Positions 1 through 8,471 of a stretch of 9,947 nt of DNA are shown in pieces. How positions within the stretch are numbered: the first letter of the stretch is position 1; each line of letters opens with the position of its first letter. A model generated the notes under the pieces. It had not been told where the DNA came from. It saw nothing but the letters and a program-made list of their open reading frames with translations, and did not search any database. The stretch is from the IMG/VR virus record IMGVR_UViG_2579779116_000007, positions 1 through 9,947 of that record; one strand, 5' to 3'. Made by a program: the position numbers and the translations under genes. This stretch comes from a virus. Lineage: Duplodnaviria > Heunggongvirae > Uroviricota > Caudoviricetes.

Positions 1-564
1 GCTTCATAGCCTGCTTCTCCTTGCCTTTCGGCACGTAAGAGGCTAACCTAGATTTGCCGTTCATAGATTGAGCCTCAGATTAATGTTAAGCGTCTTGCAG
101 GACGCGTAATGTTAACTGGGGCTTTTCTCTATCTGCCTTTTGGTGTTCATGCCTGAGACAGATAGCCTCAAGCACCCGCAGCAATTCTAACTATCCAATA
201 GATCAATGCCAACTTCTTTTCCTGCAACATCTCTCATCATAAGTGACCAAAATTCATCCAATCAGCACAAAAGAAACATTTAAAGCGTGAATGCTACCGA
301 ACGTTCATTTCAATTACATCGTTTTGATTTTTAACAGTTTTTACCTCAACAAATCAAATGGCATTAGCATTCATCATGGAAGAAAGACTGATAAAAATGA
401 TCATTTTCAATGACTTATGATCACACCGGGTATTGCCAAGTCATTCCTTTTACGCCAGGATACCCACAAGTGAGTAGTCGAGGAGAGTTTGCCAATTTTT
501 GCGATATAAATTTCAATGTCCGAAGAACCATTAATTGTTAATTGATTCTGTATAAGGTATTAAC

Positions 565-1662
565 ATGACAATTTCATATATTCCTATTCTGAAAGCGAAA
601 CGTTCTGAGTTATCAGCTTTATCGCAGCTATCCATTGAAAAGAAATCAAAAATTTTGCCATTACTCGAAATTGAACCAGTGCCAATTGACCCTGATTCAG
701 GTATTGCCTTAAAGAGTTATAACGAGACTCTTATAGAGTTCGGAAAGAAAGTCTCAAAATCTTGCTCAGATATGCAAGGTGTTTATATTGATGGATTATT
801 AATTGAAGAGCATTTTATTTCTCCTGAAGATCATTACCCTATAATAAATGCGGTTAATCAAGTTAGAGATATGGGGATAAGAGTTATTCCTGTCAGTTCA
901 CCAACTCGCCCATCTAACTATAAAAGAGCGATTGATGAATTAATGCAGAATGAAATATGCTTGAGATTAACCACGTTAGATCTGGTTAACCCACAATTAA
1001 TAACGCATTACATTAATCATCTGGGAATTCCTTTATCAAATATTGATATAATTATTGACTTAAGAGATGAGTTAACCGAGGATAAACTTAATTCCGGCGA
1101 ACTATATACTTTGGCAATGGGATTGATAAACAATCTGGCGCACCTCAATGAATACAGAAAAGTGATTCTTTCTGGGGGTTCATTTCCTACAGATCTCAGT
1201 GATATTTCTGTTGGTCTATATTCTCAACCTCGAATCGAGTGGATTTTATGGCAGAGTTTAATGAATAGAAAAGAACTTGCCAGAAATGTGATTTATAGTG
1301 ATTATGGAGTACAGCACCCCGACTTTAATAGGCTTTCGACGCGATTCCCTAACGTATCTGCCAGCGTCAGATACTCTGGAGATAATGACTTTTGGGTATT
1401 TCGAGGAAGAGTAGCTAATCGCTTTGGTTATGAACAATATGGTAAACATAGTGAGGATATTCTTGCTCATCGAGAATATTCAGGGCCTACATTCTGTGCG
1501 GGAGATAGAGACATAGAATATTATGCAAACGAGTATCAAGCCTACAAAGCCAATCCCTCTGGTAACTATAAATTTGGTAGCCCAGAGGTATGGCGTAGGA
1601 TTGGGCAAAACCATCACATAACTAAGGTTGTTGAGCAACTCGCCACTCTTTACGGGCTTTAA
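565..1662 (+). CDS. Hypothetical protein, 365 aa, AT-rich cargo gene; possible partner of the adjacent nuclease-like protein (from memory it resembles the uncharacterised sce7725-type partner family, unverified)
   Basis: ATG at 565 preceded by AAGGT (554-558) with a 6-nt spacer; uninterrupted 366-codon frame; codon usage rich in ATA/AGA/TTA, unlike the flanking prophage genes; no P-loop or methyltransferase motif recognised. Confidence 0.75.
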   Translation: MTISYIPILKAKRSELSALSQLSIEKKSKILPLLEIEPVPIDPDSGIALKSYNETLIEFGKKVSKSCSDMQGVYIDGLLIEEHFISPEDHYPIINAVNQVRDMGIRVIPVSSPTRPSNYKRAIDELMQNEICLRLTTLDLVNPQLITHYINHLGIPLSNIDIIIDLRDELTEDKLNSGELYTLAMGLINNLAHLNEYRKVILSGGSFPTDLSDISVGLYSQPRIEWILWQSLMNRKELARNVIYSDYGVQHPDFNRLSTRFPNVSASVRYSGDNDFWVFRGRVANRFGYEQYGKHSEDILAHREYSGPTFCAGDRDIEYYANEYQAYKANPSGNYKFGSPEVWRRIGQNHHITKVVEQLATLYGL

Positions 1663-2200
1663 GTTTAACTCGAACAGCTTCACGAAGCTCGCCAACATCC
1701 ATACTATTGGCGAGTTTTGACCATAAGACGCGTTTAGGTTTATTTTTCAAATTCTGTAGCTCCCCTACATCACTTAATAGGGAAAGCAATTCATCTTTCC
1801 AAAGAAGCATTGTTAAGGAAAGTTTGTCCACTTGTGGATTCAACTTGCTAGTTCGAATTGTTTTTAAATGGATACCTTGCCGTGCACCTTGCGTAACTTG
1901 CTTTATCCCCCACCATGATGGAACTATGCTTAAAGCATCATAAAGATGGCAATCAGAGACAACCAACGTTACTTTATCCATCACTGATGAGTAATGTTGC
2001 ACCTGCGCTGGTAATCTGAGCAAGTTATCACTTTTGCTCTTCAACTCATAACCATGTATAAGCCCATTGATCACTGCTATATCAGCTCTGCTAGCCCCCA
2101 GATTCATCGTAAACTCATCAATGATTAGGGTGTCAGGATCTTTATGATGATCTCTCAAAATCTTGGCATGCACAGCCTTTCTTACATCAATGTCTCTCAT
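1622..2200 (-). CDS. Hypothetical protein, 192 aa, with a putative PD-(D/E)xK nuclease-like core (E...D-x11-E-x-K); possibly sce7726-like (from memory, unverified)
   Basis: ATG at 2200 (weak SD); 193-codon frame; the segment IIDEF...SRADIAVINGLIHGYELKSKSD places acidic residues and a lysine in the spacing typical of restriction-endonuclease-fold active sites; 3' end overlaps the convergent 365-aa gene by 41 bp. Confidence 0.7.
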   Translation of the reverse strand: MRDIDVRKAVHAKILRDHHKDPDTLIIDEFTMNLGASRADIAVINGLIHGYELKSKSDNLLRLPAQVQHYSSVMDKVTLVVSDCHLYDALSIVPSWWGIKQVTQGARQGIHLKTIRTSKLNPQVDKLSLTMLLWKDELLSLLSDVGELQNLKNKPKRVLWSKLANSMDVGELREAVRVKLKARKEWRVAQQP

Positions 2201-3977: not shown

Positions 3978-4748
3978 TCACTTTTCCGACACAATACGAC
4001 TGGAGGAATCGAAAATATGTCGAACAATATCCCGGTGCTTGTTCAGCTCCCGCAGCGCGGCGCAGATTCGCTCCCACTTCTGGACATGATTTTTCGCCCG
4101 ACGCAGTTCGCGGTTTGCCATATGCAGCGATGGTAAAACCAGGTCATCCGCTCGCGTTTCAGTAAACGATGGCAGCGACTGCACAATGTCCGCCACCGTT
4201 TCTGTTTTAATATCTTCCTGTGTTGCAACCTCCTGTACTGGTAACGCAACCCCCGCTGGCTGAGGAAAGGCTTTACCATCAGTTTCCGCTACCGATGCGG
4301 CTTTCAGTTCTGCTGATAAATTCTCGCCTGGCATGCAGTAACGAAATTTACCGTTCTGATTAACGCGTGCCAGCCGCCCTGTTGAGGTTACTACCGCCAG
4401 CGTGGAAGCAACCTTGCGAATGCTGACACCGAACTTACCCGCCAGTTCCTCACACGTTTTAGCCCCCTCCTTGCCGATAAACTCAATCATCATGTCAGCG
4501 GTAACTTTTTGTTCGCCCACCCCGGTTAGCACATCCGGTGCTTCAGATTGTACTGGCTGCTCTTCGGTTACCCCGGATTCACCTTCACCAGCCAGAAACC
4601 AGGTATGACCTGTTTTATCAACGACGCCATTTCTTTTGAGTTCCCACAGCTCGTTCAGCACTTCTTCACGACTGATATCAAGTCGCGCGGCCAGTTCCAC
4701 CGACGTGGCTTTTCCCATTGCTTTCAGCGCGTCAAAAACAGTCTCCAT
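3978..4748 (-). CDS. Hypothetical prophage protein, 256 aa, with two winged-helix-like segments (possibly a full-length YdaW/DUF1627-type protein, from memory)
   Basis: ATG at 4748 with GGGAGGAAA SD; two segments with HTH character ([30 protein letters not shown] and [24 protein letters not shown]). Confidence 0.65.
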
Positions 4749-4770
4749 TAAAATTTCCTCCCGGTAAAAA

Positions 4771-5517
4771 TTACTTCTCAATTCCTGGCTGGATGACATT
4801 CGTGCGCCAGCTCTCCCAGTTAAAATTCACCCAGCGACCACCGTTCATGGTCATGCGGTCCATCACGCGCTCGCCAAGCAGCGTATTCATCGCCGTATGG
4901 TTCAGGTTCGTCAGCATCCCGACACTACGCATCGAAGCAGTTCTGCGGTCGACTATCTGGTTCAGTGTGACCTGCTCGTTGCGCGTATCCCGCTGCATTC
5001 CGATTTCATCCAGGACAAGCAGGTCAACATCACACAACCCCTGTAAAAATTTTTCGCCTGAGTTTTTGTTGTCGTAGCTGTTGTGTAACGCCAGCATCAC
5101 ATCAGCCACCGTTATCACAATCACGCTGCGACCTTTCGCCAGAAGATGATTGCCAATGGCGGCTGCAAGGTGGTTCTTTCCGGTACCCGGCTTACCGCTG
5201 AACACAAAATTCGTGCCCCCGGTCATCAGTTCGTCAGCGATGGATTTTGCCTGGCTCAGCGCATGTTTTTGCCCGTCGTTCTGCACCTGATAATTCGCAA
5301 ACGAGCATTTGCTGTGCAGAGGCTGGATGCCCGAACGATTCAGGATTTTTTCCACCCGCAACTGGCGATTCTGGCGGTTGCTCTCCTCGCTACGTTTTCG
5401 CCCTTCAGCCAGTTGCCACTCGCGCCACTCATCCACTGTCCGGTACGGCGCGATTACATGCTGCGGGGTCAGCTTACGGATACGCTCAAGAACACCACCT
5501 GCCGCGATATTTTTCAT
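4771..5517 (-). CDS. DnaC-like AAA+ helicase loader (phage P-equivalent; YdaV-like), 248 aa
   Basis: Walker [18 protein letters not shown] and Walker [10 protein letters not shown]; start lies 6 bp after the O-like gene's stop. Confidence 0.9.
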
Positions 5518-5523
5518 GGCCCG

Positions 5524-6471
5524 TTACCCCCTGAACCCCGGCGGAATTTCGGTATCCGGCTCAGAAATATGATTCACACAACGCTGTACAGACGAACGCC
5601 CCAGGCGGATAACCAGTTCATCCCATTTTTCGCGAAGCTTTGACGGACTCATGATATTTTTTACCCAGAATGGATCCCGCTGCACCCGACCAAACATTTC
5701 ACAAATTTGTCTGTGAGTTCTGCCATCCAGCATCCGCATTGTGCGCACGTCGTTGGCCCATGCGGTCCAGTTGGGTTCTTTCGGTCGCGAAATCTCGCCA
5801 TCATCGCTGGCGGCCTGCTCGTAAAGACTCACGATTCGCCCCCAGATCCACTGTGCACACGCCAAATCTTCCTGGTTACCCCACTGGCGTTTTTTCGCAC
5901 TGAACACAACCGCGTCAGGGTGTCGGGTTAAAAAGTCCTGTTCAGCCGTCTGCATGTCCGGTTGCGAAGCTTCCGGACGAAAAGATCTTTTATCTGACGA
6001 ATCAGGTTTTAATACTGACGGATCGGGGCCAACCATCGCCCCCCTATCCGACTGTTTTTTATCAACGGTTGATCCATCAAAATTTGATGGGTTAACCGTT
6101 GAGGGGGCAATATTTGACGGGTCATTTTTTGCCTGGCTAATTTTTCTTTTCGGTTTATATGCCTCACGCGCCGCCGCTGCTGCTGCTTCGAGTTTTTCCA
6201 CATTAAGACGGTAGATATTGCTTTCATTACGCCCACCGACCTTACGTTCCTCCTTCGTCAGCCAGCCGTTCTTTTCCAGTTCTGCTATCGCAGCTTTAAC
6301 CGTTGATTCACTCTTTGCCCCAATCTGACGACGAATGGTCTCCACCGCAGGCCATGACACACCTTCGTCATTGCTGTAATCTGCAAGGCGAGCCATAACT
6401 GCCACCCTGGATAAGATCATGCCGGTGAAGGCACACCCTTCCCAGACAAGACCATGAAGCTTGCTGCTCAT
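5524..6471 (-). CDS. Replication initiator, O-like/YdaU-like, 315 aa, with an N-terminal HTH and the origin iterons in its linker region
   Basis: ATG at 6471; N-terminal HTH-like segment; Ala-rich and Pro/Ser-rich linker whose coding DNA carries four iteron-like repeats followed by an AT-rich tract; positioned directly upstream of the DnaC-like gene. Confidence 0.8.
   Translation of the reverse strand: MSSKLHGLVWEGCAFTGMILSRVAVMARLADYSNDEGVSWPAVETIRRQIGAKSESTVKAAIAELEKNGWLTKEERKVGGRNESNIYRLNVEKLEAAAAAAREAYKPKRKISQAKNDPSNIAPSTVNPSNFDGSTVDKKQSDRGAMVGPDPSVLKPDSSDKRSFRPEASQPDMQTAEQDFLTRHPDAVVFSAKKRQWGNQEDLACAQWIWGRIVSLYEQAASDDGEISRPKEPNWTAWANDVRTMRMLDGRTHRQICEMFGRVQRDPFWVKNIMSPSKLREKWDELVIRLGRSSVQRCVNHISEPDTEIPPGFRG
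6061..6160. repeat. Putative phage replication origin: four iteron-like repeats (about 15-17 bp each, ending TTGAYGGG-like) plus an adjacent AT-rich tract, inside the O-like gene
   Basis: ATCAACGGTTGATCC / ATCAAAATTTGATGGG / TTAACCGTTGAGGGG / CAATATTTGACGGGTCA at 6061-6124, then TTTTTTGCCTGGCTAATTTTTCTTTTCGGTTTATAT. Confidence 0.6.
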
Positions 6472-6494: not shown

Positions 6495-6920
6495 TTAGTG
6501 CATCACCAAGGCATTTCCTGCCGGGCCACCACGATTCATCTGATTGAAACCAGCGATCGCCACTGCGACAAAATCATCAGCGTCTCTCACCAGTCGTTCC
6601 CGCGTCTCCACCAGCTCCCGAAAATAAGCTGAACTGTGGCTGCGCATTCTGGCCACCAGCAAAGGTGGCATTGCCTTTTCGATCGCTGGTAACAACGCCT
6701 GAATTTTTTCAACTGCATCAGGGGTGTCTTTCTCTACCCAGCGGAAAATTTTCTGGGTATTGCGAGCCAGGGCTTCCGGATGGCTGTCGTCATACAGTTC
6801 AGGAAACGTCATACCCAACTCAAAATAAGCCTGGGTTATTCCAGCTGCCGGAACTTTTTCACCATCCGGATGCGCCCAGGCATTCATCGCCATGCGGATG
6901 TGCTCATGTTTGATTTTCAT
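6495..6920 (-). CDS. ydaT: YdaT-family protein (CII-like regulator, historically annotated as a toxin), 141 aa
   Basis: Start MKIKHEH..., length and position after the Cro-like gene match Rac YdaT as I recall it; its ATG overlaps the upstream stop (ATGA). Confidence 0.75.
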   Translation of the reverse strand: MKIKHEHIRMAMNAWAHPDGEKVPAAGITQAYFELGMTFPELYDDSHPEALARNTQKIFRWVEKDTPDAVEKIQALLPAIEKAMPPLLVARMRSHSSAYFRELVETRERLVRDADDFVAVAIAGFNQMNRGGPAGNALVMH

Positions 6921-7219
6921 GAATCAACTCCATCAGATAAGCATGCACTACAATCACCTTCAGCATGAACTACATGTGTTTGCCCCAAACGAATGCCGCT
7001 CGCATACTCAGGCCAAATAAGCTCCCAATCATGGGGTCGTAGCTCCGCCCTACTTACTTGGCCTTCCGTCGCAGATTCGATCATAAGGGCGCGGGTTGGA
7101 GATATAGCTGCTCGTCCAGACGCCATTTGCGATAAGTAAGATGGCGATACACCAAGTCTGGCCGCGAATTTCTTAGCATCACCAACCCTCAATGATTTAA
7201 TAAACTCTTTTAATGTCAT
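6917..7219 (-). CDS. ydaS: Cro-like HTH regulator (YdaS-like), 100 aa, first gene of the leftward early operon
   Basis: ATG at 7219 with GAGGAAGG SD; HTH-like segment AARLGVSPSYLSQMASGRAAIS; divergent from the repressor gene. Confidence 0.7.
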   Translation of the reverse strand: MTLKEFIKSLRVGDAKKFAARLGVSPSYLSQMASGRAAISPTRALMIESATEGQVSRAELRPHDWELIWPEYASGIRLGQTHVVHAEGDCSACLSDGVDS

Positions 7220-7228
7220 ACCTTCCTC

Positions 7229-7316
7229 GGTTTAGTGTTTTTTTGCGAGTTTAGTGTTTAATAAACCATTAAGTCAAGTATTTGCTTGTTTAGTGATTAC
7301 TAAAGATAATTACCAC
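7229..7316. promoter_or_regulatory. Divergent immunity promoter/operator region: three direct GTTTAGTG(T/A)T repeats and two face-to-face sigma70-like promoters
   Basis: Repeats start at 7230, 7249 and 7288 (19 and 39 bp apart). Plus strand: TTGCTT (7282-7287), 17 bp, GATAAT (7305-7310), then 6 nt to the ATG at 7317, implying a leaderless repressor mRNA. Minus strand: TTGACT (reverse complement of 7272-7277), 18 bp, TAAACT. Confidence 0.55.
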
Positions 7317-7688
7317 ATGCAAAAAAAAGAAATTCGCCGTTTACGTCTCAAGGAGTGGTTTAAAGATAAAACTCTGCCACCCAAAGAGAAGAGCTACCTA
7401 TCTCAACTAATGAGTGGGAGAGCATCGTTTGGAGAAAAGGCTGCCAGAAGAATAGAGCAAACATACGGGATGCCGGAAGGGTATCTGGATGCGGAATACG
7501 CAGAACAACCGGAGGTTTCTCCACCACATGCAGGGTTAACGCCTAATCAACTGGAATTATTGCAGATTTTTTCAGCCTTCCCTGAGGATGAGCAACGCCA
7601 GATAATCAGCGAGTTAAAGCAGAAAAAAGAATCAATGGAAGATCTCATAGCGAGATGGATTGCGGCGCAAAAATGCCGCCGCGCCTGA
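7317..7688 (+). CDS. Prophage repressor / TA-associated regulator (CI/DicA-like, PaaR-like), 123 aa
   Basis: HTH-like segment KSYLSQLMSGRASFGEKAARRIEQTYG; no SD, but the promoter geometry predicts a leaderless start at this ATG; occupies the cI/dicA position; no S24 peptidase domain. Confidence 0.7.
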   Translation: MQKKEIRRLRLKEWFKDKTLPPKEKSYLSQLMSGRASFGEKAARRIEQTYGMPEGYLDAEYAEQPEVSPPHAGLTPNQLELLQIFSAFPEDEQRQIISELKQKKESMEDLIARWIAAQKCRRA

Positions 7689-8180: not shown

Positions 8181-8251
8181 CTTTCACTACCAATAGAAAC
8201 ATAGCAACCGCAACGACTTTATCAAAAGCGTTGTGTTTGTTACGCTCCGCG

Positions 8252-8296
8252 GTTTAGTTTTTACTTGACTTAAGTTTAATGTTTATTAAACTTAAG
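8252..8296 (+). promoter_or_regulatory. Putative promoter/operator for the ydfA-ydfB-ydfC(-dicF) operon: operator-like GTTTAGTT, TTGACT-16-TAAACT, and a perfect 12-bp inverted repeat
   Basis: GTTTAGTT at 8252-8259; TTGACT at 8265-8270 and TAAACT at 8287-8292; inverted repeat CTTAAGTTTAAT-GTTT-ATTAAACTTAAG at 8269-8296; shares TTGACTTAA...GTTTATTAAAC with the minus-strand promoter at 7255-7280. Confidence 0.5.
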
Positions 8297-8471
8297 ATAC
8301 CAACCCACCCCGAGCCACAGAACGCCAGGCAATACTTCGAGTTATCCGGCAGTGGTCAGGGGATAAGTAGCCAGCCCGAGGCGTAAGAACATGACGGCAG
8401 GGTTCAACTTTAATAACTATGCAGCAGGTTTTTGTTCCGCTACCCCAGCGTTAAGGGGAAATGAGGTCAAC

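Follow-up and report, generated by a model that had tools for sequence, protein, structure and literature searches.

The 97-bp lambda-like genetic switch of cryptic prophage CP-933P/Sp12 in a mosaic prophage relative

The viral DNA analyzed here, a stretch of 9947 nucleotides that we call the window, contains the lambda-like genetic switch of the cryptic prophage CP-933P/Sp12 of Escherichia coli O157:H7. The switch occupies 97 bp between two divergent genes and is already known: its promoters, leaderless start, and operator repeats were mapped in the immunity region of CP-933P from E. coli O157:H7 EDL933 and published in 2021 (Jurenas et al., 2021, mBio, PMC8630535). The layout is that of a lambdoid OR region, with repressor and cro-like genes that diverge from a short intergenic stretch holding back-to-back sigma-70 promoters. 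Overall, we consider it very probable that the region serves, in a mosaic relative, as the OR-type bistable switch of this lambdoid cryptic prophage, built on four operator units.

Identity of the control region and its genes

The paaR2/ydaS intergenic region, which is the OR-type control region of CP-933P, spans 7220..7316 and has the same 97-bp length as the paaR2/ydaS fragment used for EMSA in the published work (Jurenas et al., 2021). Indeed, the primers FL1 and FL2 of that study map exactly to 7220-7239 and 7295-7316, and the published primers that fall within 7220-7317 show no mismatches and together cover 7220-7264 and 7292-7317. The stretch left free of primers, 7265-7291, was addressed by querying the EDL933 version of the 189-nt footprint fragment. 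This fragment departs from the window at a single base, 7190, which lies in ydaS. Many O157:H7 and other Shiga-toxin-type genomes carry it at 100% identity, and it was found in 593 of 5426 complete E. coli genomes. In this comparison other O157:H7 genomes and the EDL933-derived primers stood in for EDL933 and Sakai. The primer matches and the identity of the 189-nt fragment in O157:H7 lead us to conclude that the 97-bp control region of the window is the published one. Escherichia phage Evi also carries it, identical save one SNP.

The published primers in ydaS, ydaT, and beside PL have one or two SNPs relative to the window. Because SNPs lie in ydaS, in ydaT, and downstream of the PL -10, the window represents a close allele rather than EDL933 itself, and for the same reason its quantitative behavior could differ from that of EDL933. 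The gene order ydaT-ydaS / paaR2-paaA2-parE2 / PL is common to the window and CP-933P, and the 97-bp intergenic sequence, the N-terminal domain of PaaR2, and PaaA2 are identical in the two, whereas the allele of the window sits in a different, mosaic prophage backbone. The immunity module is of the CP-933P type at >=99%, while the window is otherwise mosaic: its best coverage by any complete E. coli genome is at most 64%.

The repressor gene, paaR2 (7317-7688, plus strand), encodes a 123-aa CI-like protein whose residues 1-65 are identical to PDB 7nkv, an entry titled "phage repressor protein CI"; the N-terminal domain of PaaR2 is represented by PDB entries 7nkv, 8c3k, and 8c3l. No Pfam family matched the 123-aa repressor, and we detected no resemblance to CI or Cro at the sequence level. 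PaaR2 has no peptidase motif and is an octamer in solution (Jurenas et al., 2021). It is thus a functional analogue of CI and not a member of the lambda CI family, which combines a helix-turn-helix (HTH) domain with an S24 LexA-like peptidase; the lack of an S24 peptidase domain in a protein of 123 aa implies that PaaR2 is not SOS-inducible. On the other side, ydaS (6917-7219, minus strand) encodes a 100-aa Cro-like HTH regulator that matches Pfam YdaS_toxin, HTH_3 and, weakly, P22_Cro. The primers F-YdaS and R-YdaS match exactly, and the Shine-Dalgarno sequence of ydaS, GGAAGG, is the reverse complement of 7221-7226. Among the neighbors, named by Pfam as PaaA2, ParE_toxin, YdaS_toxin, and YdaT_toxin, a 63-aa protein is identical to PaaA2 (PDB 3zbe) and YdaT closely matches PDB 8bt1 and 3c4r.

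Several features elsewhere in the window belong to its backbone. The replication genes, a 315-aa HTH_36 protein (5524-6471), an IstB/DnaC-like ATPase (4771-5517), and a DUF1627 protein (3978-4799), differ from the ones that strain rl0044 and phage Evi have beside this module. At the left edge, positions 2-177 (minus strand) score 112 bits with the Rfam model of the sok antitoxin RNA (RF01794), whose gathering score is 59; this suggests a hok/sok type I toxin-antitoxin locus. A convergent, overlapping gene pair of 35-40% GC lies at 565-1662 (plus strand) and 1622-2200 (minus strand). One of the two genes belongs to the Beta_protein family (PF14350) and is matched by PADLOC PD-Lambda-2_C (E = 7e-42), and the other encodes a 192-aa protein matched by PADLOC 'cll' (E = 2e-28); 'beta family protein' and 'sce7726 family protein' are among the RefSeq features that underlie whole-window matches in other genomes. 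This pair is a candidate for anti-phage defense cargo of the prophage.

Promoters and operator units

The promoter of the repressor gene, PRM933P (7282..7310, plus strand), consists of the -35 hexamer TTGCTT at 7282-7287, a 17-nt spacer, and the -10 hexamer GATAAT at 7305-7310; the six nucleotides TACCAC separate it from the ATG at 7317. These are the elements and the 6-nt gap that a first-pass annotation of the sequence had proposed. The -35 matches only three of six consensus positions, so PRM933P is weak by sequence, and a consensus promoter scan did not list it. We set this miss aside as evidence against the promoter because both RACE and conservation support it. The opposing promoter foreseen in the same annotation, TTGACT-18-TAAACT, was recovered by the scan on the minus strand at 7277-7248. 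This is PR933P, the promoter of ydaS-ydaT (7248..7277), with its -35 TTGACT at 7277-7272, an 18-nt spacer, and its -10 TAAACT at 7253-7248; we infer the exact +1, which is predicted near 7241. Only 4 bp lie between the two -35 hexamers (7272-7277 on the minus strand and 7282-7287 on the plus strand). The published 5' RACE starts agree with the predicted PRM933P and PR933P, and PRM933P was also fused to gfp (Jurenas et al., 2021) in a reporter fragment that covers 7244-7317.

The same two PR hexamers recur downstream of parE2 at PL933P, the equivalent of OL (8252..8292, plus strand), as TTGACT at 8265-8270 and TAAACT at 8287-8292 with a 16-nt spacer. A dyad, GTTTAATGTTTATTAAAC, lies at 8274-8291 and a half-site, GTTTAGTTT, at 8252. 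The published PL primers map to 8181-8298, and the window shows a two-base difference from an EDL933 primer just downstream of the PL -10 (TTAAGA vs TAAAAA). The published account likewise gives identical hexamers for PL and PR; it places PL933P, with similar operators, beyond parE2 and describes it as a second target of PaaR2 and YdaS, with about 100-fold repression (Jurenas et al., 2021).

Between the two genes, the first-pass annotation had noticed three repeats of GTTTAGTG(T/A)T in a single orientation. All three are present, as GTTTAGTGWT at 7230-7239, 7249-7258, and 7288-7297, each on the plus strand. This motif has exactly three matches in the 9947-base window; shuffled sequences average 0.03 matches, and none of 200 reaches three. 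The spacing of about 19-20 bp claimed for the repeats is right for the first pair (19 bp) and wrong for the second interval, which is 39 bp. A 19/19/20-bp series emerges only with the inclusion of a fourth, degenerate unit at 7268, ATTAAGTCA, which matches the published half-site GTTTAGTAA at six of nine positions. We therefore rejected a uniform 19-20-bp array of direct repeats: the real spacing is 19 and 39 bp, and copies 1 and 2 are not conserved in orientation or presence (see below).

The published description accounts for the fourth unit. It recognizes four equally spaced 18-bp inverted repeats with the half-site GTTTAGTAA, of which IR1, over PRM933P, and IR3, over PR, are well conserved, whereas IR2 and IR4 have a single conserved half each, IR4 being without one half-site; three "pseudosymmetrical operators," OR1-OR3, are drawn over IR1, IR3, and IR4 (Jurenas et al., 2021). 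We placed the four units in the window from the text of that paper, the spacing, and symmetry scores. IR1 (7288..7305), GTTTAGTGATTACTAAAG, which contains repeat copy 3, is the best dyad, with 14 of 18 positions self-complementary, a score of at least 14/18 being reached by only 14 of the 9930 18-mers of the window. IR2 (7268..7285), ATTAAGTCAAGTATTTGC, is degenerate (6/18); the PR -35 lies within it, as do the first bases of the PRM -35. IR3 (7249..7266), GTTTAGTGTTTAATAAAC, contains copy 2, is self-complementary at 12/18, and lies over the PR -10 and spacer. IR4 (7230..7247), GTTTAGTGTTTTTTTGCG, is a half-operator (2/18) that contains copy 1; it overlaps the predicted PR start as well as the ydaS leader and carries an exact 11-nt duplicate of 7249-7259, the start of IR3. 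Copies 2 and 3 fall within a longer direct repeat of 24 nt that is 83% identical. The three repeats of the first-pass annotation are therefore the strong half-sites of IR4, IR3, and IR1. A search of the available literature found no later papers that define the PaaR2 operator.

IR1 fills the PRM spacer, so copy 3 (7288-7297) lies where the first-pass annotation had put it when it suggested autoregulation. Negative autoregulation and the repression of PRM by YdaS probably act through IR1, and IR3 is likely to be the main site for repression of PR.

Conservation across diverged relatives

A scan of one genome per species yielded 27 relatives of PaaR2, with 44-76% protein identity, from Xenorhabdus, Photorhabdus, Arsenophonus, Raoultella, Enterobacter, Erwinia, Yersinia, Morganella, Mycoavidus, Glomeribacter, Massilia, and others. 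The core GTCAAGTATTTGCTTGTTTAG includes the left arm of IR1 together with the -35 hexamers of PRM and, on the opposite strand, of PR; it was present with at most five mismatches in 26 of the 27. In 15 of them it lies 23 nt from the ATG, as in the window, and in two more the distance is 22 and 24 nt. In the relatives with constant distance, a -10-like hexamer (CAAAAT or CACAAT) ends 6 nt ahead of the start codon. The promoter/operator core and the 6-nt gap between -10 and ATG are thus conserved across genera.

Among those 15, pairwise identity is 78% over positions -44 to -1; in the adjacent coding sequence it is 41% for third codon positions and 67% for the first two. The codon-position figures are approximate, given indels in L011, L018, L020, and L026, and the contrast of 78% with 41% holds without these loci. 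The columns that are invariant across 15 sequences make up the dyad arms, both -35 hexamers, and the -10, with TTTG.TT and A.AAT fixed. As expected for untranscribed DNA between the -10 and +1, the 6 nt ahead of the ATG vary freely. This comparison is evidence, independent of the published experiments, for the two promoters, the operators, and the leaderless geometry.

The relatives also bear on how the operators are read. The IR3 sequence of the window, GTTTAGTGTTTAATAAAC, is the exact reverse complement of the consensus that relatives have at the same position, GTTTATTAAACACTAAAC (L016-L018, L020, L023, and L025), so the GTTTAGTG half-site of this operator points the opposite way there. The IR3 operator thus appears to be inverted in the E. 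coli lineage. Its arms, GTTTA and TAAAC, are nevertheless invariant in 15 sequences, and both arms of IR1 are conserved in relatives. Copy 1, in IR4, is absent from all 14 aligned relatives. The opposite orientation of IR3 and the absence of IR4 in relatives imply that the direct-repeat appearance is specific to the E. coli lineage, and they suggest that the conserved operator unit is a symmetric 18-bp dyad, not a direct repeat.

We asked how this sits with the literal reading of the first-pass annotation, in which the three head-to-tail copies of GTTTAGTG(T/A)T would themselves be the operator units, read in one direction by PaaR2 protomers. Three exact copies on the same strand are highly nonrandom, two of them extend into the 24-nt repeat, and an octameric PaaR2 could in principle bind in the manner of an iteron- or direct-repeat-binding regulator. 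OR1-OR3 were drawn over the same three places in the published work, whose authors noted that direct as well as inverted repeats might serve as targets (Jurenas et al., 2021). We nonetheless disfavor this reading and consider it improbable: the spacing of the direct repeats is irregular, the 18-mer with copy 2 is reversed and copy 1 is missing in relatives, and what stays invariant is the pair of symmetric arms, GTTTA...TAAAC. HTH repressors of the class of PaaR2 usually bind dyads as dimers, and the symmetric 18-mer would fit binding by a dimer of such a protein. The dyad is accordingly the operator unit that we retain.

The first-pass annotation had predicted a leaderless repressor mRNA, as for lambda cI, and this had in fact been demonstrated: the RACE start coincides with the ATG of paaR2, the protein begins with MQKKE by N-terminal sequencing, and its intact mass agrees (Jurenas et al., 2021). 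Inspection of 7300-7316 revealed no Shine-Dalgarno sequence upstream of the ATG at 7317. An in-frame GTG at 7254 was considered as a start of paaR2 and is ruled out by the published N-terminus. That paaR2 is made mainly from a leadered transcript, from GTG 7254 or an upstream promoter, with the -10 beside the ATG a coincidence, is extremely unlikely, for although the GTG opens a 144-aa reading frame (7254-7688), leadered transcripts cross the paaR2 region from a second promoter, PRE933P, that YdaT activates, and one clade of relatives has room for a leader, the RACE start, MQKKE, and the intact mass of the 123-aa product expressed from its own promoter refute a leadered start for PRM-derived expression, no Shine-Dalgarno sequence precedes 7317, and 15 of 27 relatives preserve the 6-nt gap, with a further two departing from it by no more than 1 nt. 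PRE933P itself was assayed by transcriptional gfp fusion only (Jurenas et al., 2021).

The clade in question comprises nine Xenorhabdus and Photorhabdus loci (L002-L007, L009, L012, and L013) with 48-310 extra nucleotides between the PRM-like promoter and the ATG, so that the repressor mRNA there would carry a leader. The insert in L012 contains about ten copies of a tandem repeat of about 22 nt (…GTAAATAGTGTTATGTGTAC…). In two Erwinia loci, L016 and L017, GGGAGG or AGGAGG abuts the conserved ATG and a second ATG follows 6 nt downstream. Should any upstream transcript read through, translation there might begin at codon 3, led by this Shine-Dalgarno sequence.

The switch and its lambda and Rac counterparts

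That the repressor binds the repeats, as the first-pass annotation had supposed, is established by EMSA and DNase I footprints on the same 97-bp sequence: PaaR2 and YdaS each shift the fragment in several steps, and the protected stretches measure about 78 bp with PaaR2 and 27+32 bp with YdaS, in each case taking in both promoters (Jurenas et al., 2021). Both promoters are repressed by both proteins, so the autoregulation that had been proposed is borne out by the repression of PRM933P by PaaR2. Low PaaR2 seems to raise PRM933P activity, an observation that rests on leaky expression in the assay (Jurenas et al., 2021).

These data, together with the units placed above, are brought together in a model in which the assignment of effects to units is our own proposal. 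The two back-to-back sigma-70 promoters would share four operator units, 19-20 bp apart, starting at 7230 (IR4), 7249 (IR3), 7268 (IR2), and 7288 (IR1). Each unit would be an 18-bp dyad with a half-site near GTTTAGTAA, IR1 and IR3 being good dyads and IR2 and IR4 offering one half only. PaaR2, the CI analogue, would bind across all four, and would repress PR933P most strongly through IR3 and IR4, over the -10 and the start site. At low PaaR2 the intrinsically weak PRM933P would be stimulated, and at high PaaR2 it would be repressed through IR1 in its spacer. YdaS, the Cro analogue, binds the same DNA and would prefer the PRM side first. The PRM transcript of paaR2 starts at the A of the ATG and is translated without a leader.

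The resemblance to lambda OR is extensive. Both have divergent, back-to-back promoters and operators that the repressor and a Cro-type protein bind in opposite preference; in both, the PRM repressor mRNA is leaderless and a weak PRM is stimulated when the repressor level is low and switched off when it is high. The two systems also share a further set of operators at PL, an activator of the CII type together with a PRE promoter, and an octamer-forming repressor. The differences are that four 18-bp units at 19-20-bp spacing are found here, whereas lambda has three operators, OR1-OR3, a contrast drawn in the published work (Jurenas et al., 2021), and that CP-933P carries the paaA2-parE2 toxin-antitoxin pair where lambda has rexAB. 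The Rac prophage of E. coli K-12 shares the arrangement of a divergent repressor and ydaS-ydaT operon in a lambdoid immunity region, with members of the YdaS and YdaT families; the CP-933P proteins are 26% (YdaS) and 31% (YdaT) identical to those of Rac (Jurenas et al., 2021).

YdaT activates the PRE-type promoter (Jurenas et al., 2021), and its operator OM, TTGATTN6AATCAA, has an exact match in the window, TTGATTTTCATGAATCAA at 6910-6927, over the ydaS stop and the ydaT start. This match is consistent with the control of PRE933P described in PMC9986795.

As a discovery the locus carries little weight, since the 2021 publication had already described the switch, with its operators and its leaderless repressor, on this same sequence. 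Its interest lies in a ParE-type toxin-antitoxin pair embedded in a prophage immunity switch with bistable expression. We see an even balance for and against a broader proposal, which draws on the alignments: that the PaaR2-type OR/PRM cassette is a module unusually conserved at the DNA level across gamma- and beta-proteobacteria, in which the leaderless register is under selection and which has natural variants in the inverted IR3 and extra IR4 of the E. coli lineage and in the leader insertion of Xenorhabdus and Photorhabdus. The natural variants of the relatives could be used to test dyads against direct repeats. If the proposal is true, they would form a ready-made series for studying operator orientation and leaderless versus leadered translation of a repressor.
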